Assembly: GCA_964247805.1 (NCBI GenBank)
Contig: CAXTWC010000014.1
Span: forward strand, 30,343 to 54,342
Length of the DNA: 24,000 nt
From: an uncultured Acetobacteraceae bacterium
GTDB lineage: Bacteria > Pseudomonadota > Alphaproteobacteria > Acetobacterales > Acetobacteraceae
Direction: 5' to 3'
Made by a program: the position numbers and the translations under genes. Of the stretch, positions 6,295-19,717 are shown piece by piece. The notes below the pieces were generated by a model, which worked only from the letters and a program-made list of their open reading frames with translations, was not told the DNA's origin and ran no database searches. Every line of letters begins with the position of its first letter. Within the stretch, counting starts at the first letter, position 1.

Positions 6295-7014
6295 TCACTC
6301 CGCGGTCGCGGCAAGCGCGCGGACGGCGGCTTCGCATGCATCGGCGACCGCGATGGTGCCAGCGCGATCGGTCGCAGCGTCGTTGAACTGCAGGGCCGGA
6401 CCGATGGTGAGGTGCAAGCGTCCCAGCCGTGGCAGGCGCCGGTCGGGCGGCCAGGCGGCATGGGCGCCGGAGAGGAAGCAGGGCACGACGGGGACCGGAT
6501 GGCCCGCAACCAACGTGCCGATACCGGGCCGGAAGCGTGCCATCGCGCCGGTGCGGCTGCGGGTGCCTTCTGGGAACAGGATCAGCACCGCACCATCCTC
6601 CAGCAGTCGCGCGCGCCACAGGTCGATGTCGGCGTGGGTGGTGTCCTTGCGCCAGACTGGCAGGGCGTTGATGGCATAGGCGGCGAAGGCGGCGCCGGGC
6701 AGAGACGTGAAGAAGGTGTCCCCTGCGGCCAGCGCGAAGGCCCGGCGCGCCAGCCTGTGCGGCAACGCAGCCGCGAGCGTAAGCGCATCCAGATGGCTCG
6801 AGTGGTTCGCCACCAGCACGAAAGGCGGGCTGGGCAAGTGCTGATACCCCGTGACCTTCAACCGGTGCACTGCGAGCAGATAACCCCGCACCAGCGCGCG
6901 CCAGAGAAACCCGAGCAGGTGACCACCCAAGCCGGGCTCGCGGCCGGAGCTGCGCAGACGCTGCTGCAGCGTCAGACCGTGGTCGCGCGCCGGGCGAAGC
7001 TGCCAGTCGGTCAT
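6295..7014 (-). CDS. lysophospholipid (1-acyl-sn-glycerol-3-phosphate) acyltransferase, PlsC family
   Basis: ATG 7014-7012 forms an ATGA overlap with the stop of the upstream gene (7013-7011). Acyltransferase block I is VANHSSHLDA (N-H-x4-D) and block III is LFPEGTRSRTG. The 276 extra N-terminal residues in track ORF 6295..7845 are Arg/Pro-rich and overlap cdsA out of frame. Confidence 0.85.
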   Translation of the reverse strand: MTDWQLRPARDHGLTLQQRLRSSGREPGLGGHLLGFLWRALVRGYLLAVHRLKVTGYQHLPSPPFVLVANHSSHLDALTLAAALPHRLARRAFALAAGDTFFTSLPGAAFAAYAINALPVWRKDTTHADIDLWRARLLEDGAVLILFPEGTRSRTGAMARFRPGIGTLVAGHPVPVVPCFLSGAHAAWPPDRRLPRLGRLHLTIGPALQFNDAATDRAGTIAVADACEAAVRALAATAE

Positions 7015-7979
7015 CCCGTGTAGATCCGCATGGGTTGGTCCAGCCCGACGCCGACGTAGTATTTGAGGTAGTGGAACACGGCCGGGGCCACGAGCAGAAG
7101 CGAGTTGTAGCGATCCAGTAGCCCGCCATGGCCGGGTATAGCGACTCCCATGTCCTTGATGCCGAGGTCGCGCTTGATGCTCGAGAGCATCAGGTCGCCC
7201 GCCTGCCCGCCGATGCTGATGATGGCACCCAAGCCGAGGAGCAGGACCCAGTGGTCGAGCACGGTGTCGGCGAAGATGGTGGAGGCGATCAACGCCACCA
7301 GCACCGACGTTGACACGAGCGCGCCCACCGCTCCAGACACCGTTTTGTTGGGGCTGGTCGCGGGTAGCAGCTTGCGCCCGCCGATCAGTTTGCCGAAGGT
7401 GAAGGCGAATACGTCGTTCAGCGCCACCGTGGTCAGCAACATGAGCACGATGGGCCGGTAGTTCCGGTCGTTGGCCATGTAGCCCAGATGTGCCAGACCG
7501 GCGCCGAACAGCATGAAGGCAAAAATTGCGAGCCCGGTCCGCTGCACGTAGCCCGTAGGCCGGTCCAGCGGGATGGAGACGATCGACAGCACGCCGACGG
7601 TGAGCGGGATCAGCGCCATGAACAGCCCGTACCAAGCATCTAGCGCGGCCGCATTCATCGCCAGCACGCCGAGCATGACGGTTGCGGTGATCAAGGTCTC
7701 GCGGAACAGCCCGGTCGCCCGGTCGTATTCGCGCAGGCAGAGCAGGCCTAGAACGGTGACCATGCCGATCGTCCAGACCCGTCCCAGTAGCACCGGCCCC
7801 AGCATCAGCGGCAGCAGCACCCCCCACGACCCGGTGCGCAGCCACAGCTCCCGTATCAGCGCGGGCGAGGCCCGGCGCGTGATGGCCAACGCGGTGATGA
7901 TGAGGACGGCGAGCAGCAGCACTGCAGTCGCCGCAATGACGATTCCCTGCGTCGCCGGGTGAGCAAAGGCGCCCGTCAC
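7011..7979 (-). CDS. cdsA: phosphatidate cytidylyltransferase (CDP-diacylglycerol synthase) family
   Basis: GTG 7979-7977 forms a GTGA overlap with the upstream stop (7978-7976). The protein is multi-TM. The C-terminal signature is SSIKRDLGIKDMGVAIPGHGGLLDRYNS (compare E. coli S-x-L-K-R-x4-K-D-x-G-x2-I-P-G-H-G-G-I-L-D-R-I-D). The rest of the 601-aa track ORF is an artefactual extension. Confidence 0.85.
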   Translation of the reverse strand: MTGAFAHPATQGIVIAATAVLLLAVLIITALAITRRASPALIRELWLRTGSWGVLLPLMLGPVLLGRVWTIGMVTVLGLLCLREYDRATGLFRETLITATVMLGVLAMNAAALDAWYGLFMALIPLTVGVLSIVSIPLDRPTGYVQRTGLAIFAFMLFGAGLAHLGYMANDRNYRPIVLMLLTTVALNDVFAFTFGKLIGGRKLLPATSPNKTVSGAVGALVSTSVLVALIASTIFADTVLDHWVLLLGLGAIISIGGQAGDLMLSSIKRDLGIKDMGVAIPGHGGLLDRYNSLLLVAPAVFHYLKYYVGVGLDQPMRIYTG

Positions 7980-8617
7980 TGCCGCAGCGCCCGGGCGATG
8001 TGCGCGAGCCGCCGCGCCGCGGTGAGCAGCGCGCCCAGCGTCACGAGCCAGAGTGCAATCTGCGGCCACCCCGCGATCCACCCGGCAGGCAACACGGCGC
8101 AGACGACGGCGAGGAAGGTGACCAACGCCATGCGCTGCTGCTTGGCCATCGGGCCGGAGAAGTCGCTCGGCTGTCCCAACCCCTTGCCGATTGCCCGGAT
8201 GTAGGCGGTCGCCATCGCGGCCAGGGCGGCTGCGAAACCGAGGGCAAGCTGCCCCGCCGCCCAGCCGAGCCCCACAAGCACGGCGGTATCCGACACTCGG
8301 TCCGGCACCTCGTTGAACAGCTCGCCGGTGGCGGACGCGACGCCGCGGCCGATGGCCACCATGCCGTCGAGCAAATTGGCCATAAGCCGGGCCTGCACCA
8401 GCGCGGCCCCGAGCAGCCAGAGCGGACGCGCAGCGCCCGGCACCTGTCGGGTAAGGGCGAACGCGACGCCCGCAAGACAGGCCGCGATGGCACCGGCGAC
8501 AGAAATCCCGTTCGGCGACGCCCCCCGGCGAACCAGCCAGTCGGCCGCAGCCATCACCGGACGTAGACCGCGCGCCGCGATCGGTCGCCGGTCGCCAGCG
8601 ATCCCATTCGCTGCCAT
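7976..8617 (-). CDS. CDP-alcohol phosphatidyltransferase family protein (head-group specificity not inferable)
   Basis: Motif NLLDGMVAIGRGVASATGELFNEVPDRVSD (8377-8300) aligns with D-x2-D-G-x2-A-R-x8-G-x3-D-x3-D. The protein has about 6 TM helices. Start chosen at ATG 8617 (MAANGIAGDRRPIAARG…), as is usual for the family. In-frame alternatives are ATG 8698 and TTG 8710. Confidence 0.8.
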   Translation of the reverse strand: MAANGIAGDRRPIAARGLRPVMAAADWLVRRGASPNGISVAGAIAACLAGVAFALTRQVPGAARPLWLLGAALVQARLMANLLDGMVAIGRGVASATGELFNEVPDRVSDTAVLVGLGWAAGQLALGFAAALAAMATAYIRAIGKGLGQPSDFSGPMAKQQRMALVTFLAVVCAVLPAGWIAGWPQIALWLVTLGALLTAARRLAHIARALRQ

Positions 8618-8664
8618 GTTTATGGCCAATGCCTCCCCACTCGCCCTTGGCTTGCACGCTGCTC

Positions 8665-8695
8665 CGTCGGGGCAGAGTCGCAGCCTGCCCCGGCG
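8665..8695. promoter_or_regulatory. inverted repeat / potential hairpin in the divergent control region
   Basis: CGGGGCAG (8668-8675) and CTGCCCCG (8685-8692) are perfect complements around a 9-nt spacer. Pairing is extendable to 8665-8695 with one T/G position. It lies upstream of the ATG-8617 start, or inside the N-terminal extension if TTG 8710 is used. Confidence 0.3.
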
Positions 8696-8839
8696 CATGA
8701 GAATGCTCAACCCAGCAGGACCAAAGCAGGGCGGGCCAGGCGGCGCGGGCGGCCCGACGAATGCGCCTTCCCTTCCCCGCTCTACAACGACCGCGAGACG
8801 GTCTATCCTCTAGCAAGAACGATCCACCACGGAACCGCC

Positions 8840-9820
8840 ATGAGCCTGAAGAGCCTGATCTCCAGCCAGTTCCTCGATGTGTTGCAGTGGACGGAGGACG
8901 GCCCCGGGGTACTCGCCTGGCGCTACCCCACCGCGGGTCACGCGATCCAAACCGGGTCGTCCTTAACGGTGCGCGAGAGCCAGGCCGCGATGTTCGTCAA
9001 TGAGGGCCGAGTAGCGGACATCTTCGCCCCGGGCCGCTACACGCTGAACACGCAGACGCTGCCAGTGATGACGTCGATCGAGAACTGGGACAAAGGCTTC
9101 CAGTCGCCGTTCAAGTCCGACCTGGTGTTCTTCAGCACCCGTGACCAGACGGACCAGCGCTGGGGCACGGCGCAGCCGATCACGGTGCGCGACAAGGAGC
9201 TCGGCCCGCTGCGCATCCGCGCCAACGGGGTCTACTCGTATCGCGTCCACGACGTGGCGACATTCTACGCCCGGCTGAGCGGGACGACGCCGCGCTACAC
9301 CGTGGATGATGCGGCCGGGCAACTGCGCGCCGGGATCTTGACCGCGATCGCCTCCGGGCTCGGCGCCAGCGCCATCCCGTTCCTCGACATGGCCGCCAAC
9401 CAGCAGCTCCTGTCGGATCGGCTGCACGAAGCAATCGACCCGGTGTTCCTCAACTACGGCCTACAACTGACCGGCTTCTTCATTCAAAGCTTGTCCTTGC
9501 CCGACGAGGTGGCCGAGCATCTGGATCGCCGCTCCTCGATGCAGATCGTCGGCGACATGGGCCAGTACACCCGGTTCGAGGCGGCGGAGAGCTTGCGGGA
9601 CGCAGCCGTCAACGGGGGCGGCGCAGCCGGTGCGGGCGCCGGGCTGGGCGCGGGTCTGGCGTTGGGGCAGGTGATGGGGCAGGCGCTCACACAAGCGGCG
9701 GCCCCCGCATCGGACCCGATCGCCGCCATCGAGCGGCTGGGCGAGCTGTTCAAGCGTGGTGTCCTGACGGAGGCAGAATTCGCCGCGAAGAAAGCCGAGC
9801 TGCTGCAACAGATCCGCTGA
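8840..9820 (+). CDS. SPFH (band-7/flotillin-like; YdjI / COG4260-type) protein with C-terminal SHOCT domain
   Basis: ATG 8840. The N-terminus MSLKSLISSQFLDVLQWTEDGPGVLAWRYP… is as I remember for the YdjI-type SPFH clade. A Gly/Ala linker follows. The C-terminus DPIAAIERLGELFKRGVLTEAEFAAKKAELLQQIR is a textbook SHOCT motif. Stop is TGA 9818-9820. Confidence 0.85.
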   Translation: MSLKSLISSQFLDVLQWTEDGPGVLAWRYPTAGHAIQTGSSLTVRESQAAMFVNEGRVADIFAPGRYTLNTQTLPVMTSIENWDKGFQSPFKSDLVFFSTRDQTDQRWGTAQPITVRDKELGPLRIRANGVYSYRVHDVATFYARLSGTTPRYTVDDAAGQLRAGILTAIASGLGASAIPFLDMAANQQLLSDRLHEAIDPVFLNYGLQLTGFFIQSLSLPDEVAEHLDRRSSMQIVGDMGQYTRFEAAESLRDAAVNGGGAAGAGAGLGAGLALGQVMGQALTQAAAPASDPIAAIERLGELFKRGVLTEAEFAAKKAELLQQIR

Positions 9821-9822
9821 GC

Positions 9823-10524
9823 GTGGGAGCTGCTTCGCAGTCCACGCCGAGCGTGAACATCGCGTGCCCGTCCTGCGGGGCCGCCATTCCGTTCCGCTCG
9901 TCGTTCTCCGTCTACGCCGTCTGCTCGTACTGCGGCAGCACGGTCGTCCGCAACGACCGGGACGTTCGCGCCATCGGCAGCGTGGCCGACCTGCCGCCGG
10001 AGATGACGCCGTTGCAAGTGGGAACCGAGCTTGATTGGCAGGGCGTGCGCTACACCCTGGCTGGCCGACTCCGTGTGTCCTGGCAGGATGGCGCGTGGAA
10101 CGAGTGGTTCATGGCGGCCGGGGACGCGACCGGCTGGCTGGCCGACGCGCAGGGTTTCCTGTCCGTCGCCTTCGCGCAGCCGATCGATCAGGCGCCGGAC
10201 CTCGCAACCGGTGCGCTGCCCGCATTCGGCGACACCCTGACGATTGCGGGACGCCCGTTCCGGGTCACGGACGTCAAGGACGCGGTGTGCGTGGGCAGCG
10301 AGGGCGAGCTGCCGTTCCGCGCGGCCATGGGTCAACGCACGACCTATCTCGACATGGTGGACCCCACGGGCGGCTTCGCCAGCGTCGAGAGCACGGCGGA
10401 CGGCGTGGAATTGTACCGCGGCGAGTACGTCGGGTTCGACGCGCTCGGCCTACGCAACCTGCGCAAGCTCGAAGGGTGGGCGCCGCCGACCAATCGCCCG
10501 GGGGCCGACGACCCGCTCGCATGA
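9823..10524 (+). CDS. zinc-ribbon + DUF4178-like protein (soluble)
   Basis: GTG 9823 lies 2 nt after the upstream stop. N-terminal ribbon is CPSCG-x17-CSYCG. Trp-rich beta repeats follow (WQGVRYTLAGRLRVSWQDGAWNEWFM…GWLADAQG; CVGSEGELPFRAAMGQ), matching my memory of DUF4178. The start could alternatively be GTG 9853. Confidence 0.8.
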   Translation: MGAASQSTPSVNIACPSCGAAIPFRSSFSVYAVCSYCGSTVVRNDRDVRAIGSVADLPPEMTPLQVGTELDWQGVRYTLAGRLRVSWQDGAWNEWFMAAGDATGWLADAQGFLSVAFAQPIDQAPDLATGALPAFGDTLTIAGRPFRVTDVKDAVCVGSEGELPFRAAMGQRTTYLDMVDPTGGFASVESTADGVELYRGEYVGFDALGLRNLRKLEGWAPPTNRPGADDPLA

Positions 10525-11789
10525 CCAACCGCGACATCCCCGGCGACCCGGCGCCCAAGGAGCGGCCCGGCCGTGCCCGCACCCTGTCCTGCCCTCGATG
10601 CGGCAGCCCGGTGACCATCCGCGCGAACGGGCTCAGCATCACCGCCATCTGCGGCGCGTGCGGCGCGGCGCTGGACGTTGCTAATGACGCGGTTCGGCAG
10701 ATCGCCGAGGCGCAGGCGCGCACGCGGCAGCCCCCGATTTCGATCGGGACCCGCGGCACATTGGGCGGCACGGAGTGGGAGGTGCTGGGCTATCAGCTCC
10801 GCAGCAGCGGCGCCGGGTCGTGGCAGTGGGAGGAATACCTGCTGTTCAACCCGTATCGCGGGTTCCGCTTCCTGGGCCAGGACCACGGCCACTGGACGCT
10901 CTACGGCATGCTCCGCCGCGACGTGGAGGACCCGCTGGTCGATGGCGGCGACGGCCTGCGTTACCAGACCAGCGACGCGGTGCTCGCCCGGACCGACTAC
11001 GTGCTGGGCGAGTTCTACTGGCGCGTCCGCGTCGGCGACACGGTCGATGTGCGAGAGTTCGTGCATCCGCCGTTCGTGTTGTCGGAGGAGCGGGCGGACG
11101 ACGAAGTCACCTGGTCGCGCGGTCGATATCTGGAACCGAGCGTCGTGCAGGCCGCGTTCAAGCTGGGCCGTATGCCGCAGCGAGTTGGCCGGACTGGGGG
11201 CCAGACCGAACCGAGGCGGCTGACGCTGTGGCCGGTCGCAGTGATCAGCCTGGTCGCCTTGGTGGTGTTGAACGAGGCGCCTTTCGGGCAGGGGCTCGAT
11301 ACGCTCGTGCTGCGCCAGAACTTCACGATCACAGCCTCCGACCAGGATCGCAGCCTGCCTGCCGTGCCGCTCTCCATCCCGTATGCAGGGGGCAACCTGC
11401 AGATCGAGGCGAGCACGGCGGCGGAGTTGGGGTTGCTCCAACTGAATGTCTCGTTGGCACTGCAAGCCGGGTTCAATCGGCGGGATGCGGTTTTTACCCT
11501 GGGCTCGCTGATGCAGAATGGGTCCGCGACGCAGACCGCCTTGTTCAGCTCGGTTGCGGGAGGCAGCGCCACCTTGCTGATCACCCCGCATAGCAGCGCC
11601 TTCCCGGACATCACGCAGCCGGGGAGCCCGTCGCAGACGCCGCCCGCGGAGTCACTCTCGTTTAGCCTTACTGTGCGGCGGCACGTGCACGACCCGGTCA
11701 GCTTCTTCCTGGCGGCGCTTGCCATCCTATGCTGGCCGGTTTTCTCGACCCTGCGCCGGTGGTTCCGCAGACTCGGGCACACCGCATGA
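10521..11789 (+). CDS. zinc-ribbon + DUF4178-like protein with C-terminal TM-bracketed extracytoplasmic domain
   Basis: ATG 10521 forms an ATGA overlap with the upstream stop. Ribbon is CPRCG-x16-CGACG. DUF4178-like repeats are TEWEVLGYQLRSSGAGSWQWEEYLLFNP…GHWTLY and YVLGEFYWRVRVGD. Then TM helix LTLWPVAVISLVALVVL, a ~170-aa Ser/Thr/Leu-rich domain, and TM helix VSFFLAALAILCWPVFSTL. The 162 Arg-rich residues upstream in the track ORF are artefact. Confidence 0.8.
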   Translation: MTNRDIPGDPAPKERPGRARTLSCPRCGSPVTIRANGLSITAICGACGAALDVANDAVRQIAEAQARTRQPPISIGTRGTLGGTEWEVLGYQLRSSGAGSWQWEEYLLFNPYRGFRFLGQDHGHWTLYGMLRRDVEDPLVDGGDGLRYQTSDAVLARTDYVLGEFYWRVRVGDTVDVREFVHPPFVLSEERADDEVTWSRGRYLEPSVVQAAFKLGRMPQRVGRTGGQTEPRRLTLWPVAVISLVALVVLNEAPFGQGLDTLVLRQNFTITASDQDRSLPAVPLSIPYAGGNLQIEASTAAELGLLQLNVSLALQAGFNRRDAVFTLGSLMQNGSATQTALFSSVAGGSATLLITPHSSAFPDITQPGSPSQTPPAESLSFSLTVRRHVHDPVSFFLAALAILCWPVFSTLRRWFRRLGHTA

Positions 11790-11971
11790 GGCGCTTGGCC
11801 GCCTACACGTTGTGCTGCGCCGTCGTGCTTGGCCTGTTCACCTATGGCCACTTCTACGGTCGGTCCCTGTTCGACGACATGCCAGACAAGCCCGGGAGCG
11901 GGTCGAGCGGCGGCGGCAGCGGCGGCAGCGGGTTCTTCTACACCGGCGCTTCCGGCGGCTCTCACAAATAG
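11786..11971 (+). CDS. 61-aa single-pass membrane mini-protein with Gly/Ser-rich tail
   Basis: ATG 11786 forms an ATGA overlap with the upstream stop. Product: MRRLAAYTLCCAVVLGLFTYGHFYGRSLFDDMPDKPGSGSSGGGSGGSGFFYTGASGGSHK. Stop TAG 11969-11971 overlaps the Shine-Dalgarno of the next gene. Its position in the coupled chain supports translation. Confidence 0.6.
   Translation: MRRLAAYTLCCAVVLGLFTYGHFYGRSLFDDMPDKPGSGSSGGGSGGSGFFYTGASGGSHK
11912..11929 (+). repeat. perfect 9-bp tandem duplication (ggcggcagc x2) inside the mini-protein gene
   Basis: 11912-11920 and 11921-11929 are identical. They are in frame (GGS-GGS) and preceded by the related agcggc. Confidence 0.6.
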
Positions 11972-11980
11972 GAGTCCAAC

Positions 11981-12205
11981 ATGCAAACCGACCTGATCAA
12001 CTGGCACGGCATCGCCTCCGCGCTGATCTTCTCCACCATCGGGCTTGTGGTATACGCCGTCGGCTTCTTCCTGCTCGACCGGTTGACCCCGCAGGTGCAC
12101 ATCTGGCGCGAGATCAACCAGGAGAAGAACGTGGCGGTCGCCGTGGTGATCGGCTCCGTCGCGATCGGCATCGCCCTGATCATCGCCGCCGCAGTGCGCG
12201 GATGA
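11981..12205 (+). CDS. DUF350 (YjfL-like) small integral membrane protein
   Basis: GGAG (11971-11974) lies 6 nt before ATG 11981. The 74-aa product has the DUF350 pattern …LDRLTPQVHIWREINQEKNVAVAVVIGSVAIGIALIIAAAV. Stop is TGA 12203-12205. Confidence 0.85.
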   Translation: MQTDLINWHGIASALIFSTIGLVVYAVGFFLLDRLTPQVHIWREINQEKNVAVAVVIGSVAIGIALIIAAAVRG

Positions 12206-13731
12206 CAACGCGGTCGCAGCCAATGACGGTGCTGCTGTTCACATCGGTCTTCGCCATCGCGACCTGCGGGCTGGTGTACGAGCTGATCGCGGGAACGCTC
12301 GCGTCCTACCTGCTGGGGGACTCGGTGACGCAGTTTTCGACCGTGATCGGCGCCTACCTGTTCGCCATGGGCGTGGGCTCCTTCCTGTCCGGCCGCATCG
12401 AACGCGACCTGCTGGCGGTGTTCGTGCGCACGGAGATCCTGATCGGACTGGTCGGCGGCTTCTCCGCGGCCGTTCTGTTCCTGCTGTTCGGCAGCGTCGC
12501 CGCGTTCCGCATCCCGCTCTACGCCATCGTGGGCGTGGTCGGCGTGCTGGTGGGGGTGGAGGTTCCATTGCTGCTGCGCATCCTGCACGGCCAATTTGCC
12601 TTCAAGGACTTGGTCGCCCGGGTATTCTCCTTCGACTATATCGGCGCGCTGTTCGCCTCTTTGCTGTTCCCGCTGGTACTAGTGCCGCATCTCGGGCTGG
12701 TGCGGTCCTCCTTCATGTTCGGCATGATCAATGTCGGCGTTGCCCTTTGGCTGCTGTGGAGCTTCGGCGCCGACATCCGCGGTGCGGCGCTGCACCGAGC
12801 AGCCGGGTTGATCGCATTGGCGGCTTTGGCGACCGGGTTCGTGGAAGCGGACCGCATCATGCGCCAGGCGGAGGCCTGGGTGTTCCCCGACCCGGTGGTC
12901 TACGCCGAGAGCACACCCTACCAGCGCATCGTGCTCACCGCCTCCTCGCGCGACGTCAGGCTGTTCCTCAACAACAACCTGCAGTTCAGCAGCCGCGACG
13001 AATACCGCTACCATGAGGCGCTGGTGCATCCAGGGCTCACCGCCGTGGCGCATCCCGCCCGCGTGCTGATTTTCGGCGGCGGTGACGGTCTGGCGACCCG
13101 CGAGATCCTGAAGCACCCGGAGGTGGAGAGCATCACCCAGGTCGAGCTCGACCCGGCGATGGTGCGGCTGTTCTCCGGCAACGCCGCTCTGGCCCGCATG
13201 AACGACGGCGCCTTCGCCTCCCCCAAGCTGCACGTCGTGAACGCGGACGCCTTCGTCTGGCTGAAAGAGAATGCTGGGCAGGCGCAGTTCGACTACGTCG
13301 TAATAGATTTCCCGGACCCATCCAACTTCTCGGTCGGCAAACTTTACTCGCTGACCTTCTATCGCCTGCTAAGGCAGATGCTGGCGCCGGGTGCTGCAAT
13401 GGTCGTGCAGAGCACGTCGCCCTACATTGCTCGCCAGGCCTATTGGTGCGTGGTGAGCACGCTCGAGGCGGCCGGACTTTCCACCGTGCCATACCACGTG
13501 TTCGTGCCATCCTTCGGCGAATGGGGATTCGTGTTGGCCGGGGTGCAACCGCTGCAATTGCGCGACGCCTACCCGCCCGGGCTGCGTTTCGCCTCCGCCG
13601 CCACGATGGCGGACATGCGCCATTTCCCGCCGGACATGAGCCGTGTGCCGACCGACATCAACCGGCTCGATAGCCAGGCGCTGGTGCGCTACTTCGATGC
13701 CGAATGGGGCGCCTACGGGATCAACGGATGA
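12202..13731 (+). CDS. speE: membrane-anchored polyamine aminopropyltransferase (spermidine/spermine-synthase-like) with ~7-TM N-terminal domain
   Basis: ATG 12202 forms an ATGA overlap with the upstream stop. About 7 hydrophobic helices are followed by a SpeE-like domain: YQRIVLT…LFLNNNLQFSSRDEYRYHEALVHP, the AdoMet-type glycine motif VLIFGGGDGLATRE, and VVIDFPDPSN. The upstream 161 residues of the 670-aa track ORF are artefact. Confidence 0.85.
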   Translation: MTTRSQPMTVLLFTSVFAIATCGLVYELIAGTLASYLLGDSVTQFSTVIGAYLFAMGVGSFLSGRIERDLLAVFVRTEILIGLVGGFSAAVLFLLFGSVAAFRIPLYAIVGVVGVLVGVEVPLLLRILHGQFAFKDLVARVFSFDYIGALFASLLFPLVLVPHLGLVRSSFMFGMINVGVALWLLWSFGADIRGAALHRAAGLIALAALATGFVEADRIMRQAEAWVFPDPVVYAESTPYQRIVLTASSRDVRLFLNNNLQFSSRDEYRYHEALVHPGLTAVAHPARVLIFGGGDGLATREILKHPEVESITQVELDPAMVRLFSGNAALARMNDGAFASPKLHVVNADAFVWLKENAGQAQFDYVVIDFPDPSNFSVGKLYSLTFYRLLRQMLAPGAAMVVQSTSPYIARQAYWCVVSTLEAAGLSTVPYHVFVPSFGEWGFVLAGVQPLQLRDAYPPGLRFASAATMADMRHFPPDMSRVPTDINRLDSQALVRYFDAEWGAYGING

Positions 13732-15338
13732 CCCTGGACCGACCGTTGGGCCGACCCCTGGGCCGACGCGACGCGCTGATCGCCGCGGGGGCTGCCTGCG
13801 TCGTCATACCGGCAGGGTCCAGTGCTGCCTCCCCCATGCCGGGCCAGTTGCTAGGCGCCGACGCAGCGCTTGGTCACCGCTTGCGCAGTGGCAGCCTGCC
13901 CGAGCCGACGCAGACGGAACAGGCGGAGGTGGTGGTGATTGGCGGCGGTGTCGCAGGCCTCTCGGCGGCTTGGTGGCTGCGGCGCACCGGCGTTGAAGAT
14001 GTGCGCGTCGTCGAGCTGGAGCGCGACGTGGGGGGCAACGCCGCAAGTGGCCGGAACGACGTTTCCGCCTACCCGTGGGGCGCGCATTACGTCCCGCTGC
14101 TAACGGCGGAATCGGTTCATGCGGCGGCGCTGTTCACCGATCTCGGCATCATCACCGGTCGTGATGCGGCAGGGCTGCCGATCTACGATCCATTTGCTCT
14201 CTGCGCCGACCCGCGCGAGCGGCTGTTTCGCAATGGTGCCTGGCAGGAGGACCTGCTGCCCGACGAAGGCGTCTCCGAGACCGACCGCGCGCAATACGCC
14301 GTCTTTTTCGCCGCCATGGACTCCTTCCGCGCCGCACGAGGAACGGACGGGCGCAAGGCCTTCGCGATCCCGATCGACCAGAGTTCGGCCGACGAGCAAT
14401 TCCGGGCGCTCGACCGCATCAGCATGGCAGATTGGATGCAGGCGCGCGGTTGGGACAGCGCACCGCTGATGTGGTACGTCAACTACGGCTGCCGGGACGA
14501 TTACGGCGCCGCCGCGACCGATGTGTCCGCGTGGGCTGGCATCCACTATCACGCATCCCGCGATGGCCGGGCCGGTGACGGCGTCAGCCCGCAGACGGTG
14601 CTCACCTGGCCGGACGGCAACGGCCATATCATCCACCGCATGAAGGCGATGCTGGGCCCGGCGCTATGCTCGGCGCTGGCCTGGCGCGTGCAGCCTACCC
14701 CCGAGGGCGTGGCCGTAGATGTGTTCGAACCCAGGCGCAATGCCGCGCGACGGATCGTGGCGCGAGCCGCCGTGCTCGCCGTTCCGCGTTTCGTGGCCAA
14801 CCGGCTGCTCGGTCGCGTCCCGAACCTTGAGCAGAGCTACGCTCCCTGGATGGTCGCGAACGTCACCGTCGGTCGCATGCCAGGCGGTCGAGGCGCCCCC
14901 TTGTGTTGGGACAACGTGATCTACGGCAGCCGATCACTGGGCTACGTGGTGGCGACCCACCAATCCCTGAGGCAAGAGCAACGAGGCACGGTGCTGACCT
15001 ATTACTGGCCGCTGTCCGATCAGTCGCCCGAGGACGCACGGCGCGCCGCCCTCGCCCGCACGCTGTCCGAGTGGCAAGCCATGGTCATGGAAGAATTGCT
15101 GGCAATACATCCGGAGCTGGACGGCGCGGTGGAGCGCATCGACGTTTGGCTCTGGGGCCACGGCATGATCCGCCCTACGCCGGGCGCGATTTGGGGGTCG
15201 GCGCGTGCCGCCACCTGCGTCCATGCGCCGCCGGTGTTCTTCGCCCATTCCGATATGAGCGGCATTTCCATCTTCGAGGAAGCAAACGAACGCGGCGTGC
15301 AAGCGGCCGACGCAGCAAGGGCATACCTGCAGGGCTGA
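13728..15338 (+). CDS. FAD-dependent amine-oxidase-family oxidoreductase with Tat-type signal peptide
   Basis: ATG 13728 forms an ATGA overlap with the upstream stop. The N-terminus MTLDRPLGRPLGRRDALIAAGAACVVIPAGSSAASP has a twin-Arg, an h-region and an A-x-A-like site. The dinucleotide fold is VVVIGGGVAGLSAAWWL…VVELERDVGGNA, which is the flavin amine oxidase/desaturase style. Stop is TGA 15336-15338. Confidence 0.8.
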   Translation: MTLDRPLGRPLGRRDALIAAGAACVVIPAGSSAASPMPGQLLGADAALGHRLRSGSLPEPTQTEQAEVVVIGGGVAGLSAAWWLRRTGVEDVRVVELERDVGGNAASGRNDVSAYPWGAHYVPLLTAESVHAAALFTDLGIITGRDAAGLPIYDPFALCADPRERLFRNGAWQEDLLPDEGVSETDRAQYAVFFAAMDSFRAARGTDGRKAFAIPIDQSSADEQFRALDRISMADWMQARGWDSAPLMWYVNYGCRDDYGAAATDVSAWAGIHYHASRDGRAGDGVSPQTVLTWPDGNGHIIHRMKAMLGPALCSALAWRVQPTPEGVAVDVFEPRRNAARRIVARAAVLAVPRFVANRLLGRVPNLEQSYAPWMVANVTVGRMPGGRGAPLCWDNVIYGSRSLGYVVATHQSLRQEQRGTVLTYYWPLSDQSPEDARRAALARTLSEWQAMVMEELLAIHPELDGAVERIDVWLWGHGMIRPTPGAIWGSARAATCVHAPPVFFAHSDMSGISIFEEANERGVQAADAARAYLQG

Positions 15339-15361: not shown

Positions 15362-15823
15362 TCAGGTCGTCCAGGGCTTGGTGGATTGCGGGCAGGACCG
15401 CTCCTCGGCAAGCGCCACGGTGCGCAGAAAGACCAGCAATGCCGCCTGGTCGGAGCGCGCCAGCCACCTTCCACCGAGCGTCAGGACGACCCCGAAGAGC
15501 AACATGCCCGTGATGCCAAGCGCCAGCACGCCGACATCGGTCGTGCCGTGCTGTAGCAACTCGCCGACAGCCTGAACGCCGGTTTCGAGCGCGAGTGGCC
15601 CCAGCATGAGCACCCAGAATGCCAGGAAGGCCCAAACAGCCGGGCTCATGCCGACGCTGACCTCGAAGCAGGTTCCATCTTGGCAATCCCGCATCCGGCC
15701 GACCAGGCGGGGTTGAAAGGAATTCCGATAGGCGATGCGGCGCTCCACCCGCACCCGGTCTGAACGAACCCGGCCGCGCATCTCGGACGATGGGGCAGCC
15801 AACGCGTCCGCCAATCGACGCAC
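15362..15823 (-). CDS. hypothetical membrane protein (Arg-rich N-terminal region + ~3 hydrophobic helices)
   Basis: GTG 15823 to TGA 15362. Position-3 GC is high. Helices: SPAVWAFLAFWVLMLGPLAL, VGVLALGITGMLLFGVVLTLGG. It is convergent with the end of the polyamine operon (23-nt gap). The start is uncertain; an ATG at 15781 is also possible. Confidence 0.5.
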   Translation of the reverse strand: MRRLADALAAPSSEMRGRVRSDRVRVERRIAYRNSFQPRLVGRMRDCQDGTCFEVSVGMSPAVWAFLAFWVLMLGPLALETGVQAVGELLQHGTTDVGVLALGITGMLLFGVVLTLGGRWLARSDQAALLVFLRTVALAEERSCPQSTKPWTT

Positions 15824-15993: not shown

Positions 15994-17568
15994 CTAGGCG
16001 TGCGGCAGGTCGACGCGGAAGGCGGCTCCTCTAGTTGCGGGCAGCAGCGTCACCTGGCCACCTGCTCCTGTCACCAGAGCGCGCACGATCGGTAACCCTA
16101 GACCCGTGCCGCCCCGGTCGCGGGCCGTGGTGAAGAACGGCTCAAAGACGTCCGCACGGTACGAGTCGGGGATCCCCGGTCCGTCATCCGCGACGGTGAT
16201 CTGCACCCACGGTGGCGCGCTCCGTATCGCGATGTCCACCGCTGCACCCGGCGCATGGGTTTTTGCATTGTCCAGCAAGCTGGTCAGCACCGCATCCAAC
16301 GCGTCGGGCGCGATCGCCACCCGGCCATCGCCGTCGCACGCCACGACCAAGCCGCCTGCCCTGAACCGATCGGCCACTTGGAGGATGGTCGGGGCGACCG
16401 CGATGCCGAGCCTGTCCTGCGGCATGGCCCCGGCAACATCGGCGCGCGCCAGTTCCACTAGGCGCCGCACCAAGTGGTCCAGCCGGTCGGCTCCTTCGCC
16501 AACGAGCCGCAGCAAGCGGGCGCGTTCGGCAGGAGCCAGGGTGTCGGCGTGATCCTCGAGCAGCTCTCCAGCACCGCGGATGGCCGCCAGCGGCGTCTTG
16601 AACTCGTGCGACACGCCCGCAGCGAGCCCGGCCACCGTGCCCGCCCGCCTTGCCAGGGTGTCCGCCATCCGAGTGAGCGCGGTGGACAGGGCAGCGATCT
16701 CCCGTGTGCCGGGCCGGGCCAAAGGCGCCATGCTGCCACCTGCCGCGACGATACCGGCTTGGGCGACCACCTGCCCCAGCGGCCTGGTAACCAGGCGGGA
16801 GATCGCCGCCGCCAGCCCAAGGCCACCCGCCAGCAGCAGTGCCAGCAGAGCCGCGAGCGCCTCACGCTTGCCCCAGAGCGCGCTGCCCAGCGTGTTGGGC
16901 GTGCGCGACAGCACGACGGCACCTAACACGCCGCCAGACTCATTGGTGACCGGCAAGGCCACGAACACGCGAAGCCTGGCCACCCGGCTGATACCACCGG
17001 GCACGATGCGCGCCGGTTCTCGCCGGTGCATGCCGGTTGCCACGGGCGCGCCAGCCAGGACGGCAGCGACTTCCGGCCAAGCCGCCAGACTACGGCCACC
17101 GTCGCTGCCCGTGCTGGCAACGATCACGCCGTTGCGGTCGGTGATCCGCAGGCTGGATAGGGTCACGCCCTGGGCGTCATGCAGCACGGGCGCGATCGCT
17201 GTCCCGGCTGCCTGCACGGCCGGGTCAGGCGGGCTGCCTGGGGCGTCGTCGGGCTGGGGTGGGAGCACGGGGTCGCTGGCCAGATCCAGTCCCGGGCGGC
17301 GCGCAAGGTGCAGCGCGGCTTCGGTCGGTTGCGCCGGGCCATCCAAAGATTGCGGGACGGTTGCCGGGCGCAACCGCTCCCGCATGTCCCCAGCCAACAC
17401 GGCGGCCTGCGCGACCAGCTCCGACTCGGTTTGCCTGACCAGGGCGCTCTCATACAGGCGCAAGGCCCATAGACCCCCGACGGGCAGGGCCAACACCGCC
17501 AAATTGCTGAGCAGCAGCACCGTCCGCAGCCGGGGCGGCCGCTTGCGGTCAAGGCGCCCCCAACTCAT
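15994..17568 (-). CDS. two-component sensor histidine kinase (2-TM, periplasmic sensing domain; possibly CreC-like)
   Basis: ATG 17568 forms an ATGA overlap with the response-regulator stop. H-box is VSHEFKTPLAAIRGAGELL, N-box is LLDNAKTHAP, G-boxes are VADDGPGIP and GGTGLGLPIVRAL. TM helices are near residues 17-37 and ~240-262. Confidence 0.9.
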   Translation of the reverse strand: MSWGRLDRKRPPRLRTVLLLSNLAVLALPVGGLWALRLYESALVRQTESELVAQAAVLAGDMRERLRPATVPQSLDGPAQPTEAALHLARRPGLDLASDPVLPPQPDDAPGSPPDPAVQAAGTAIAPVLHDAQGVTLSSLRITDRNGVIVASTGSDGGRSLAAWPEVAAVLAGAPVATGMHRREPARIVPGGISRVARLRVFVALPVTNESGGVLGAVVLSRTPNTLGSALWGKREALAALLALLLAGGLGLAAAISRLVTRPLGQVVAQAGIVAAGGSMAPLARPGTREIAALSTALTRMADTLARRAGTVAGLAAGVSHEFKTPLAAIRGAGELLEDHADTLAPAERARLLRLVGEGADRLDHLVRRLVELARADVAGAMPQDRLGIAVAPTILQVADRFRAGGLVVACDGDGRVAIAPDALDAVLTSLLDNAKTHAPGAAVDIAIRSAPPWVQITVADDGPGIPDSYRADVFEPFFTTARDRGGTGLGLPIVRALVTGAGGQVTLLPATRGAAFRVDLPHA

Positions 17569-18251
17569 TCACATGGCCCTAAACGGTAGCCGAAACCGGG
17601 CAGCGTCTCGATTGGTGCGGCGCCCAGGGCGGCGAACTTGGCGCGCACGCCTCGCACGTGGCTGTCCACGGTCCGATCGCTCACCACCCGGTCGGTGGCA
17701 TAGGCGCGGTCCATCAGTTCGTCGCGGGAGAACACCCGGCCGGGGCGAGCCAGCAACGCGCGTACCAACCCCAATTCGGTAGCCGTCAAGGCAACTTCCG
17801 TCCCGTTCCAGGTGACACGGAGCGTGTCCTCATCCAACGCCAGCCTGCCCCGTCGGCGGATGGGCGTGGCGGGCGCTGCCGGTGCACCGACCCGGCGCAG
17901 CACGGCGCGGACACGCGCGACCAGTTCGCGCGGACTGAACGGCTTGGCGATATAGTCGTCGCCGCCGACCTCCAGCCCCACGATACGGTCAACCTCCTCG
18001 TCACGGGACGACAGGAACAGGATCGGCACCACGCTGGTGCGGCGCAAGGCCCGGCAAACGTCGATGCCGTCCAGCCCGGGCATGGTCACATCCAGCACCA
18101 ACAAATCGGCCCCGCTGGAGGCAAAGTGGTCCAGCGCCGCTTGGCCATCGACGGCTTCCGCGGTGGCGAACCCGGCCCGGTCCAGGGCGAAGCGCACCAC
18201 TTCGCGGATGGCCGGGTCATCGTCGACTATCAAGATTCGGGGCGTGGTCAT
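17565..18251 (-). CDS. OmpR/PhoB-family DNA-binding response regulator (possibly CreB-like)
   Basis: ATG 18251 (MTTPRILIVDDDPAIRE…). The phospho-acceptor context is LLVLDVTMPGLDG, then SSRDEEVDRIVGLEVGGDDYIAKPFSPRELVARVRAVLRR, then a winged-helix C-terminus …GFGYRL. The 54 residues upstream in the track ORF are unlikely to be coding. Confidence 0.9.
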   Translation of the reverse strand: MTTPRILIVDDDPAIREVVRFALDRAGFATAEAVDGQAALDHFASSGADLLVLDVTMPGLDGIDVCRALRRTSVVPILFLSSRDEEVDRIVGLEVGGDDYIAKPFSPRELVARVRAVLRRVGAPAAPATPIRRRGRLALDEDTLRVTWNGTEVALTATELGLVRALLARPGRVFSRDELMDRAYATDRVVSDRTVDSHVRGVRAKFAALGAAPIETLPGFGYRLGPCE

Positions 18252-18261
18252 GAGACGTATT

Positions 18262-18321
18262 TGCACGCGATCTGCACAGGAACGCCACGGGATCCGCACG
18301 GCCGCCGCATACCGCCTGCAT
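18262..18321. promoter_or_regulatory. array of six nGCAy pentamers at exact 11-bp phasing (candidate response-regulator binding sites, cre-tag-like)
   Basis: TGCAC 18262-66, TGCAC 18273-77, GCCAC 18284-88, CGCAC 18295-99, CGCAT 18306-10, TGCAT 18317-21. The array fills the 86-bp gap between the divergent regulator (ATG 18251) and creD (GTG 18338). Confidence 0.5.
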
Positions 18322-18337
18322 CCTGGAGGCCCATCGA

Positions 18338-19717
18338 GTGGTCTCCACGACAGGATCTCCGCCCATGAGCGACACTCAAGCTGCCCCGGCCCGCTACGAC
18401 TGGCTTGCCTCACCGATAGCGAAGCTGGGCCTCATCCTGCTCCTGACTCTGCTGCTGCAGATCCCATTGCTGGCCGTGTCCAGCTTGATCGGCGAGCGGC
18501 AGGACCGGCAGGACCAGGTCACCGCCAGTATCGGCCGAAGCTGGGGTCCGCCCCAGACCATCACGGCACCCACCCTTGCTGTCCCATATACCTGGACCGA
18601 GCCAGCCACCAATCTGGCGCCAGCGCAACGCCGCCGGGGTTGGGTCCAAGTGCCACCACACGATGTCACGCTCAAGGTGCAACTTTTGCCAGAAACGCGC
18701 CGCCGCGGCCTGTTCCGGGCTACGGTGTATACTGGCACGGTGCAGGTCGAGGGCACGCTGGTCATACCGCCTGTCGAGTTGAAGGACATGCCCGGTGCTG
18801 AGTTGCTGTGGAGCGAGGCTGTGATTGCCGTGGGCGCCAGCGACCTGCGCGGACAGCCGCCTGGCGGCACGATGAGCGTGAGCGGACGTGCGCTGCCGCT
18901 CTCCGTCAGCAGCAGCGGTGAGGTGTGCGGCGCCACGGCCATGGTATCTGCTGGGTTGGCCGGACCGCCATCGCCCGGCACGGCGATCTCATTCGCCACC
19001 AAGCTGTCGCTGCGCGGCACGCAATCCTTCGCGGTCGCACCCTGGAGCAACCGCACCGACCTCACCGTTGAGGCGCCGTGGCAGACGCCCAGTTTCGGTG
19101 GCGCCGCCCTTCCACTGTCCTATGGGATCGAGGCCGCGGGCTTCCACGCCGACTGGCAAATCGAGGGCGACGCCATGGCAAGCAACTGGCGCACCGGCCC
19201 CGCCCCGTTGCCGACCTGCTCGGTGGCCGGAAGCGGCGCTGACGTCAGTGTGGACTTGCTGGAAGCGGTACCGACCTACCTGATGGTCACCCGGGCGGCC
19301 AAATACGGCACGCTGTTCCTGGTACTATGCTTCCTGACCTATTTTCTGATCGAGCAAGGGGCAGCCTTGCGCATCCATCTGGCGCAGTACGGTCTGCTCG
19401 GGCTTTCGGTGGCCTTGTTCCCGCTCCTGCTCCTCGCTGTGGCGGAGCCTCTGGGCTTCACCGTCGGCTATGGGGCCAGTACGGCGGCGGTCATGGCGCA
19501 GGCTTCGCTCTATACCTTGTCCGTGACCGGCCGCACTCGCCCGGCGCTGCTGTTCGCCGGGGTTTTGGGGACGTTGTTCGCGGTGCTGTTCGTGATCCTG
19601 CAGCTGGAGACCTACGCCCTGCTCACCGGCACGGTAGTACTGTTCCTGGTGCTGTCCGTGATCATGGCGACGACCCGCCGCCTGGATTGGAGCGGCCCGA
19701 CCACGCGGCGTGCTTGA
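18338..19717 (+). CDS. creD: cell envelope integrity / inner membrane protein CreD
   Basis: GGAGG (18325-18329) lies 8 nt before GTG 18338; ATG 18365 is an alternative. The N-terminal TM is followed by LIGERQDRQDQVTASIGRSWGPPQTITAPTLAVPY, which parallels the E. coli CreD N-terminus as I recall it. A large periplasmic domain and ~5 C-terminal TM helices follow. Confidence 0.85.
   Translation: MVSTTGSPPMSDTQAAPARYDWLASPIAKLGLILLLTLLLQIPLLAVSSLIGERQDRQDQVTASIGRSWGPPQTITAPTLAVPYTWTEPATNLAPAQRRRGWVQVPPHDVTLKVQLLPETRRRGLFRATVYTGTVQVEGTLVIPPVELKDMPGAELLWSEAVIAVGASDLRGQPPGGTMSVSGRALPLSVSSSGEVCGATAMVSAGLAGPPSPGTAISFATKLSLRGTQSFAVAPWSNRTDLTVEAPWQTPSFGGAALPLSYGIEAAGFHADWQIEGDAMASNWRTGPAPLPTCSVAGSGADVSVDLLEAVPTYLMVTRAAKYGTLFLVLCFLTYFLIEQGAALRIHLAQYGLLGLSVALFPLLLLAVAEPLGFTVGYGASTAAVMAQASLYTLSVTGRTRPALLFAGVLGTLFAVLFVILQLETYALLTGTVVLFLVLSVIMATTRRLDWSGPTTRRA

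Follow-up and report, generated by a model that had tools for sequence, protein, structure and literature searches.

A 24,000-nucleotide stretch of DNA from an uncultured Acetobacteraceae bacterium (the window; GenBank assembly GCA_964247805.1, contig CAXTWC010000014.1, positions 30,343 to 54,342 of the forward strand) carries an operon of seven genes, designated here g1 to g7. The operon as such is not new, since it belongs to a widespread kind of gene neighbourhood that comparative genomics has already catalogued. The explanation that best fits its features, although we hold it with slightly less than even confidence, is that it encodes an extracytoplasmic module for aminopropylation and amine oxidation, in which the leading candidate acceptor is the lysine at the C-terminus of the small peptide encoded by g4. 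The genes and their products are listed below, with TM denoting transmembrane and Tat denoting twin-arginine translocation.

8840-15338, plus strand: the whole operon, seven same-strand open reading frames (ORFs), g1 to g7
8840-9820, plus strand: g1, SPFH-SHOCT protein, 326 residues; Band_7_1 at residues 27-235, SHOCT helix pair at 295-322
9823-10524, plus strand: g2, soluble zinc ribbon and DUF4178 protein, 233 residues (DUF4178 E = 3.9e-20, Pfam)
10521-11789, plus strand: g3, membrane protein, 422 residues, with a CxxC...CxxC zinc ribbon preceding DUF4178 (E = 1.1e-14, Pfam)
11786-11971, plus strand: g4, pre-peptide, 61 residues; predicted signal at residues 1-21 (nucleotides 11786-11848)
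11981-12205, plus strand: g5, DUF350 protein, 74 residues, two TM helices and one DUF350 repeat (E = 1.3e-13, Pfam)
12202-13731, plus strand: g6, seven-TM protein with aminopropyltransferase domain, 509 residues; TM region at residues 9-216 (nucleotides 12226-12849), catalytic region at about 230-450 (nucleotides 12889-13551)
13728-15338, plus strand: g7, Tat-signal flavoprotein with a flavin amine oxidase fold, 536 residues; signal at about 1-35 (nucleotides 13728-13832), twin arginines at 13-14

Under the proposed mechanism, the g6 protein would be held in the inner membrane by its seven helices with the aminopropyltransferase domain facing the periplasm, where it would move an aminopropyl group from decarboxylated S-adenosylmethionine (dcAdoMet) onto an extracytoplasmic amine. 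The donor would be made in the cytoplasm and handed over the membrane by the strongly conserved seven-helix domain. The acceptor would be the epsilon-amine of the g4 C-terminal lysine, yielding a peptide-borne, spermidine-like group, and the Tat-exported g7 protein would then oxidise or remove that amine. The DUF350 protein (g5) and the transmembrane DUF4178 protein (g3) may form a membrane core that g2 and g1 assemble or regulate at the cytoplasmic face, perhaps in parallel with the recruitment of SamI by SamG and SamH in Bacillus subtilis. The parts of this scheme that we infer are how g6 is oriented, that the donor passes over the membrane, which amine is the acceptor, and what g1, g2, g3 and g5 do. 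If the peptide is the acceptor, the operon would represent a new type of post-translational modification, and a donor derived from S-adenosylmethionine (AdoMet) would have a new use outside the cytoplasm. If it is not, this is an ordinary member of the catalogued neighbourhood. Long membrane-anchored SpeE-like genes are common, and the module is a recurrent partner of PspA- and SPFH-based envelope systems. The lysine-ended peptide, the predicted outward-facing catalytic domain and the Tat signal make the question of the substrate directly testable.

Gene calling carried out independently on the source contig (ENA ERZ22921148 NODE_308, 66.7 kb) arrives at the same set of seven products, and the genes are packed with near-zero spacing. 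The TGA stop codon of g1 (9818-9820) is separated from the GTG start codon of g2 at 9823 by a 2-nucleotide gap (TGAGCGTG), and ATGA stop/start overlaps occur four times (10521-10524, 11786-11789, 12202-12205 and 13728-13731). At the g4/g5 junction, which reads TAGGAG, the last G of the TAG stop codon (11969-11971) is common to the GGAG at 11971-11974, with the ATG start codon at 11981 following 6 nucleotides on. These junctions had been described in an earlier prediction made from the sequence of the window (hereafter the original prediction), and every coordinate given there is correct. Stop/start overlaps alone are frequent in GC-rich operons, and the GC content of the window is 63-71%. The operon is more than a chance arrangement, and it is conservation, rather than the overlaps, that is decisive on this point.

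Conservation was assessed by scanning GTDB species representatives for motifs with an alignment of long SpeE proteins, in which at least 590 loci match; the best 80 were taken. These 80 loci were searched by tblastn with the window proteins, with the Labrys AdoMet decarboxylase (class 1b), and with g8, a polytopic membrane protein of about 360 residues encoded after the oxidase in many loci. The denominators given for this census are the loci with enough flanking sequence. Genes g1, g2, g3, g5 and g7 occur in the order seen in the window in 22 of the 56 loci that have enough flank on both sides. Operons of this kind are present in Alpha-, Beta- and Gammaproteobacteria, Chlorobi (Chlorobaculum), Vampirovibrio, Oligoflexia, Verrucomicrobiota, Bacteroidota and Leptospiraceae, and the gene order recurs in at least six phyla. 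Two close relatives (L088 and L089), whose g7 proteins are 83-85% identical to that of the window, have the same seven genes with the oxidase last and unrelated flanks. Therefore, the short form is a stable variant of this clade and the operon is a conserved unit. The original proposal of a self-contained, membrane-associated operon is borne out in this respect, given that the order is kept beyond close relatives and that the flanks of the relatives differ.

The peptide encoded by g4 is central to the acceptor proposal. Its mature part of about 40 residues is rich in Gly and Ser and ends with His-Lys, encoded by CAC AAA at nucleotides 11963-11968 immediately before the stop codon, and its C-terminal stretch reads ...FFYTGASGGSHK. 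The peptide matches no Pfam or NCBIfam family, and a phmmer search against 1.84 billion representatives recovered four relatives only, all ending in [SY]HK. Evidence for its spread comes from the neighbourhood census, because the members are too short and have diverged too far to be traced by searching with their sequences. An ORF of 45-70 residues that ends in His-Lys-stop is located immediately upstream of the DUF350 gene in 77 of 85 sequences, and three additional loci outside these 85 agree. Of the eight sequences without such an ORF, five are orphan SpeE loci, two are contigs cut off on the upstream side, and the last is a Nitrospinota locus lacking the upstream genes. Thus, wherever a sampled locus includes the upstream genes (DUF4178 and DUF350), the His-Lys-ended ORF is present as well. 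As a background rate, 0.5% of ORFs of at least 40 residues in the same DNA end in His-Lys, with the true cases counted in. Both His codons (CAT and CAC), both Lys codons (AAA and AAG) and all three stop codons are used, and the gap to the DUF350 gene ranges from -12 to 122 nucleotides. Because codons, stops and spacing all vary, the constraint acts on the protein, and the possibility that His-Lys is a by-product of a conserved ribosome-binding sequence for DUF350 was ruled out on the same grounds. On plasmid p2 of Tritonibacter mobilis (L093, 5566-9527), two DUF4178 genes are followed by a peptide ending in NSNRVK, then by DUF350 and a SpeE protein that is 42% identical to g6. Lys is identified as the most conserved residue of the peptide because this variant keeps it while the His is replaced.

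Alignment of the g4 peptides reveals a basic N-terminus, a hydrophobic core of about 15 residues, and a small/aromatic/small pattern at window positions 19-21, which correspond to -3, -2 and -1. Position 21 is small in 77 of the 79 sequences used for column statistics. A near-invariant Gly lies four residues past this position, followed by a linker that is variable in length and composition, and then by [FYS]-H-K. In the Novosphingobium copy, a lipobox (MVMAGC) takes the place of the signal-peptidase I site. Judged from the sequence, the pattern corresponds to a Sec signal peptide that signal peptidase I would cleave. A first reading of g4 as a single-span membrane anchor was replaced in view of the short hydrophobic core, the conserved -3/-1 pattern and the lipobox variant. 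For the same reasons, a cytoplasmic location of the tail, which its basic character might suggest, explains the data less well than a cleaved signal. The original prediction had called this product a Gly/Ser mini-protein, which describes its composition correctly but misses both the export signal and the conserved C-terminal His-Lys. The recognition of g4 as a predicted family of exported peptides, in which a signal peptide is followed by a linker that varies and by His-Lys at the C-terminus, is new here.

The enzyme proposed to act on this peptide is the g6 protein. It scores 656 bits against the NCBIfam model PRK03612 for polyamine aminopropyltransferase (cut-off 472) and matches Pfam Spermine_synth with E = 3.7e-32, while it falls under the threshold of the 'fused MFS/spermidine synthase' model NF037959 (33.5 bits versus 40). 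Its closest solved chains are 7xif, 6qmm, 1uir and 6bq2, with the catalytic domain aligning to 7xif and 6qmm, and its top named relative is the SpeE protein of Acidisphaera sp. L21 (76% identity). The dcAdoMet-binding and catalytic residues are all there, including the GGGDG motif, the ribose-binding acid, the D-x-x-D gatekeeper loop and the Y-x-E motif. Specifically, Y270-H271-E272, GGGDG at 292-296, E/D315, D349 and D369-x-P-D372-P are invariant across 84 homologues, which suggests that the domain is intact and the enzyme active. This bears directly on the idea that the operon is a structural membrane-stress module whose enzyme-like domains are inactive relics. The SPFH protein, the kinship to PspA-linked operons and the missing decarboxylase in the clade of the window are compatible with that idea, but the invariance of the g6 catalytic residues and of the g7 flavin motifs (32 homologues) makes it very improbable.

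Part of the membrane domain of g6 is under even stronger constraint, as helices 1 and 2 and the loop between them outrank the catalytic domain in conservation, with E27 and D40 invariant. The mean number of Lys plus Arg residues in the 84 homologues is about 1.3 at the N-terminus and then alternates between low and high in the successive loops (0, 2, 1, 4, 0.9 and 3.1). Applying only the positive-inside rule to these charges, the N-terminus is predicted to lie inside and the catalytic domain outside the cytoplasm, and this extracytoplasmic placement of the catalytic domain is new here. Helix 7 equals helices 5 and 6 in hydrophobicity (mean Kyte-Doolittle value 2.07), has an uncharged run of 18.5 residues, and is flanked by a basic segment on its N-terminal side (3.1 Lys plus Arg) and an acidic one on its C-terminal side (2.8 Asp plus Glu versus 1.1 Lys plus Arg). 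An arrangement in which helix 7 is an amphipathic linker and the enzyme is cytoplasmic was dropped as the leading reading, the helix being uniformly hydrophobic in all 84 homologues. The neighbouring g5 protein matches positions 3-66 of the 133-position DUF350 profile, and orthologues of 72-74 residues are conserved across loci.

The product of g7 carries a Tat signal, with twin arginines followed by a hydrophobic region and an A-x-A type site (GRRDALIAAGAACVVIPAGSSAAS). Among 69 orthologues, 58 have the RR motif and the others an RK-type variant, and many copies from Bacteroidota and Verrucomicrobia have a lipobox cysteine. This conserved signal on the oxidase is new here, and it predicts that g7 is exported. 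Pfam detects only the N-terminal Rossmann region for flavin adenine dinucleotide (FAD) through NAD_binding_8 and DAO. There is no match to Amino_oxidase (PF01593) at E <= 0.1, and many orthologues at 50-70% identity do have PF01593. The AlphaFold2 model (pLDDT 84, pTM 0.84) retrieves with Foldseek a bacterial monoamine oxidase with putrescine (8p84/9h5p, E = 1e-22) as the top match, followed by spermidine dehydrogenase SpdH, cyclohexylamine oxidase, putrescine oxidase and monoamine oxidases A and B (7d9h, 2yg3, 1o5w; E = 1e-19 to 1e-22). SpdH, putrescine oxidase and bacterial monoamine oxidase have the same two-domain fold as the g7 model (TM-score 0.6-0.7, E = 1e-19 to 1e-22), whereas they are only 14-19% identical to it in sequence, and sequence-level detection of g7 is confined to the Rossmann segment. 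The FAD-binding and C-terminal flavin motifs are invariant in the 32 homologues. Hence, the model and orthology, rather than a Pfam score, indicate that g7 is a flavin amine oxidase. Of the families originally predicted for the operon, Band_7, SHOCT, both copies of DUF4178, DUF350 and Spermine_synth are confirmed by profile searches, and Amino_oxidase is upheld by fold and by the PF01593 orthologues but not by Pfam score.

In the original prediction, an SPFH scaffold and zinc-ribbon DUF4178 sensors are stoichiometrically coupled to synthesis and oxidation of a polyamine-like compound; both the sensor role and the stoichiometric coupling are conjectural. As a free compound this is one option only, given that the topology predicted from sequence is extracytoplasmic for the peptide, for the oxidase and for the catalytic domain of g6. 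In such free-amine metabolism, which is in essence the original view, g6 would aminopropylate a small amine in solution, other than putrescine. The product would cross the membrane or act on it and would be degraded by g7 for homeostasis, with the peptide, DUF350, DUF4178 and SPFH proteins serving as regulators or scaffolds rather than as substrates. The conservation in g6 of D369 and D372, the diamine-binding pair of canonical enzymes, is in keeping with this version, as are the small amines used by the closest g7 structures (putrescine, spermidine and cyclohexylamine), the occurrence of SpeE-oxidase pairs without the peptide in Ralstonia, and the dedicated AdoMet decarboxylase in most loci. 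However, it leaves unexplained a universally co-encoded exported peptide whose terminal Lys is its only strictly conserved residue, as well as the apparent periplasmic facing of both the enzyme and the oxidase, and related fusions reportedly do not make spermidine (Li et al. 2019). We consider it a serious but somewhat unlikely alternative to modification of the peptide.

The acceptor could also belong to the envelope itself, either a macromolecule such as peptidoglycan or the head group of a lipid, for instance an amino- or inositol-type phospholipid. The peptide Lys would then be used otherwise, for example for covalent attachment to peptidoglycan in the manner of Braun's lipoprotein. Braun's lipoprotein (Lpp) ends in YRK, and the aromatic-basic-Lys terminus of the g4 peptide is similar. 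A predicted extracytoplasmic catalytic domain would suit such an acceptor, and genes for lipid metabolism lie beside the operon. Upstream of g1, on the opposite strand, are genes for a PIP-synthase-like CDP-alcohol phosphatidyltransferase, a CdsA-like protein, an acyltransferase and an M48 peptidase, with the three lipid genes (phosphatidyltransferase, CdsA-like and acyltransferase) located at 6295-8710 on the minus strand and divergent from the operon. Homologues of the PIP-synthase-like protein (37% identity) are also encoded divergently beside orphan long SpeE genes in three Verrucomicrobiaceae loci, L018 (9217-10038), L019 and L031. This adjacency may reflect a lipid link or coincidence, but it is missing at most loci, including the close relative L088, and the operon has no L,D-transpeptidase gene. 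Moreover, we know of no aminopropylated lipid or peptidoglycan. A lipid or peptidoglycan acceptor is thus an improbable alternative.

Modification of the g4 lysine outside the cytoplasm faces several difficulties of its own. To our knowledge, no export of dcAdoMet has been described, and a periplasmic aminopropyltransferase is without precedent. No decarboxylase gene that could supply dcAdoMet lies near the operon on the source contig. The far end of the g4 tail is basic (on average 3.8 Lys plus Arg), which would favour a cytoplasmic tail if the signal were not cleaved. Furthermore, partial forms of the operon demonstrate that no pairing of its components is obligatory. on Ralstonia megaplasmids, SpeE and the oxidase form a pair with no gene for the peptide, DUF350 or DUF4178 beside it; the Tritonibacter locus has the peptide and SpeE with no downstream oxidase; and Verrucomicrobiaceae loci (L018, L019, L028, L031 and L038) have orphan long SpeE proteins that are 62-63% identical to g6, with none of the other components nearby.

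The neighbourhood to which the operon belongs was catalogued by Ravi et al. 2024 (mSystems, PMC11237479) in a comparative genomics study without experiments. It describes operons in which a 7TM spermine-synthase-like protein, DUF350, a small lipoprotein and DUF4178 are joined to a CesT/Tir-PspA dyad. Also described there are dyad-free variants with a band-7 plus 2TM plus SHOCT protein, a polyamine oxidase and AdoMet decarboxylase. These descriptions agree with the links between Psp systems and polyamines that the original prediction had given as background. The window operon resembles the PspA-free variant in having a band-7/SHOCT protein instead of the CesT/Tir-PspA dyad, together with the 7TM spermine-synthase-like protein, DUF350, DUF4178 and a polyamine oxidase. 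It differs in that the AdoMet decarboxylase listed for that variant is missing from the window and its close relatives. An entry for Shewanella, 'LipoSIG+Ctha_1186+Low-comp', denotes a small exported low-complexity protein upstream of DUF350 and agrees with g4. The C-terminal His-Lys, the Tat signal and the outward orientation are not mentioned in the searched text and supplement (PMC11237479). For the idea that the compound aminopropylated by these enzymes is not putrescine, the same paper cites Li et al. 2019.

The g6 protein can also be compared with membrane-anchored fusions of this general kind. Li, Kurihara, Kim, Liang and Michael, in the Biochemical Journal in 2019, reportedly found fusions of a membrane domain with a spermidine synthase-like (SpdSyn-like) domain clustered with AdoMet decarboxylase and DUF350, and are said to have proposed a substrate other than putrescine. 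Related fusions reportedly neither make spermidine nor complement an Escherichia coli speE mutant. The window operon is similar to these reported clusters in having a membrane-anchored SpeE-like enzyme with DUF350 close by. Unlike them, it has no clustered decarboxylase, and g6 lies above the PRK03612 threshold and below that of NF037959.

A precedent by analogy for the peptide as acceptor may exist in E. coli K-12, where two operons pair a small exported protein with an enzyme of polyamine type. In the first, the DUF350 gene yjfL is followed by the gene for the DUF1190 protein YjfM, which ends in RGHWGG, and then by a gene annotated as a peptide--spermidine ligase (L086, 11980-14192). In the second, tolC-ygiBC, the DUF1190 protein YgiB ends in SRSMGG and its gene also precedes a gene annotated as a peptide--spermidine ligase (L087, 2745-4582). 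The original prediction had cited yjfIJKLMC as background, and the description is consistent with the E. coli locus. The natural peptide substrate of these ligases is undetermined (PMC11762307, citing Pederick 2023), and the DUF1190 C-terminus may be a candidate substrate of the adjoining enzyme. These systems resemble the window operon in being envelope-associated and in combining a small exported low-complexity protein with a polyamine-type enzyme, next to DUF350 in the case of YjfL. However, the E. coli yjf enzyme is a cytoplasmic ATP-grasp peptide--spermidine ligase, the small protein is a DUF1190 member with a Gly-Gly end, and the operon includes the PspA-like YjfJ and the CesT/Tir-like YjfI. 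It is also without DUF4178, SPFH and oxidase genes, all of which are in the window operon. Conversely, domain scans of the ORFs in the window found no ATP-grasp ligase, DUF1190 or PspA-like YjfJ domain, leaving DUF350 as the sole part in common with yjf. By this analogy, a terminal carboxylate would suit an ATP-grasp ligase and a terminal amine would suit an aminopropyltransferase.

A bolder extension of this comparison, which we offer as a speculation unlikely to hold in full, is that such systems do not produce a free polyamine but assemble a group of polyamine type on a protein. In the window operon, peptidyl N6-(3-aminopropyl)lysine would be a tethered spermidine analogue, formed with dcAdoMet passed through the seven-helix domain and oxidised by the Tat flavoprotein. 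YjfM-YjfC and YgiB-YgiC would be the ATP-grasp counterparts that join a terminal Gly carboxylate to spermidine. If true, this would provide a common logic for the DUF350-linked 'polyamine' operons.

The three upstream genes encode the proteins placed at the cytoplasmic face or in the membrane core of the proposed module. The g1 protein matches Band_7_1 (E = 2.8e-71) and SHOCT (E = 4e-9) in Pfam, and a Gly/Ala-rich hydrophobic segment at about residues 255-288 (NPGGxAGAGAGLGAG) is kept, together with SHOCT, in 29 orthologues. In g2, a CPSC...CSYC zinc ribbon lies N-terminal of DUF4178, and a hydrophobic segment is absent. The g3 protein consists of a zinc ribbon (residues 20-62), DUF4178 (75-206), a TM helix (236-252), a beta-sandwich (261-387) and a second TM helix (392-419), and the AlphaFold2 model (mean pLDDT 85.8) has the same domain order. 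Arg-rich segments are found at the cytoplasmic ends of both helices, the second helix being followed by an Arg-rich tail. A cytoplasmic ribbon and DUF4178, followed by a helix, the sandwich and a second helix with this tail, lead to the prediction that the sandwich of about 125 residues is periplasmic. Foldseek searches with the g3 model returned generic jelly-roll and beta-sandwich matches only. Homologues of g2 and g3 are fused into proteins of 606-682 residues with two DUF4178 domains in Verrucomicrobia, Nitrospirae, Competibacteraceae and others (L003, 7107-9086; proteins P0304-P0360), which suggests that g2 and g3 of the window act together.

In the pspA-ydjGHI (samGHI) operon of B. subtilis, the membrane proteins SamG and SamH recruit the SPFH protein SamI (PMC8581546; bioRxiv 10.64898/2026.02.06.704340), and the background on YdjI given in the original prediction agrees with the first of these sources. 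Both operons encode an SPFH protein with a zinc-ribbon membrane protein. However, the window operon is without PspA, without the TPM-domain protein YdjH and without enzymes of the Bacillus system, and its zinc ribbons carry DUF4178 rather than an NTF2-like domain. Pfam scans of the operon and flanking ORFs detected no TPM domain in the window.

Within the census, DUF4178 occurs in 62 of 66 loci, the oxidase in 57 of 62, g8 in 40 of 62, AdoMet decarboxylase in 40 of 56 and the SPFH-SHOCT protein g1 in 23 of 66. The original prediction had treated the Tat amine oxidase as a special addition to the window operon. This does not stand, given the frequency of the oxidase among the loci and the PspA-free form with polyamine oxidase already described in PMC11237479. 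Rather, the real peculiarity of the window is loss, in that AdoMet decarboxylase and g8 are both missing from the operon. The absence of PspA and AdoMet decarboxylase from the window had been predicted correctly. Pfam scans found no PspA domain in 27 ORFs of the window, tblastn with the Labrys class 1b enzyme found no AdoMet decarboxylase in the window, and its flanking genes have no AdoMet_dc match in Pfam. Nor was AdoMet decarboxylase found in L088 or L089. Two other Acetobacteraceae loci (L005 and L006) keep g8 and have no decarboxylase within 10 kb. In Verrucomicrobiota, g1 is absent and g2 and g3 are fused, and in Bacteroidota the decarboxylase comes first and g1 is absent.

The g8 protein, encoded at 13110-14201 in L007 and also in L005, L006, L040 and about 40 other loci, matches no Pfam or NCBIfam family. 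It has several His-containing motifs (HVYST, FHFVRQQYG, AHGIPYM and PQITHYxLDAxIWR), and AdoMet decarboxylase is usually encoded after it. The SpeE-oxidase pair of Ralstonia solanacearum (L090 and L091; about 6971-10184 in L091) is located downstream of a branched-chain-type ABC transporter and constitutes a genetically tractable minimal form.

The presumed promoter region of the operon is the divergent intergenic region at 8711-8839 (129 nucleotides), between the minus-strand PIP-synthase-like gene and g1. A promoter scan of this region found no sigma-70 consensus site, and it contains no Rfam family; an Rfam scan of the full window gave nothing over background. A scan of the operon interior found no promoter- or terminator-like site exceeding the shuffled expectation, which is weak evidence. 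The differing flanks in close relatives, along with a phage-type integrase fragment about 9 kb downstream of the operon in L089, raise the question of whether the operon is an anti-phage defence system or cargo of a mobile element. PADLOC reported no system, with weak matches only of g6 to mad2 and of g7 to C3a186, and the operon has been inherited over whole phyla and is of ordinary composition. We therefore regard a role in defence, or as mobile cargo, as barely credible.

Immediately downstream, a hydrophobic ORF of 153 residues (15362-15823, minus strand) is convergent with the operon and lies 23 nucleotides from the g7 stop codon; the source record calls only 95 residues of it. This ORF belongs to no family and has no homologue in any census locus. 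Further downstream, at 15994-19717, are genes for a CreC-like kinase, a CreB-like response regulator and CreD. Genes of the CreC/CreB/CreD type also adjoin the operon in metagenome-assembled genomes of Vampirovibrio (L033, 2197-6101) and Thiobacillus (L040, 17897-21370), and a regulatory link to an envelope two-component system is possible.

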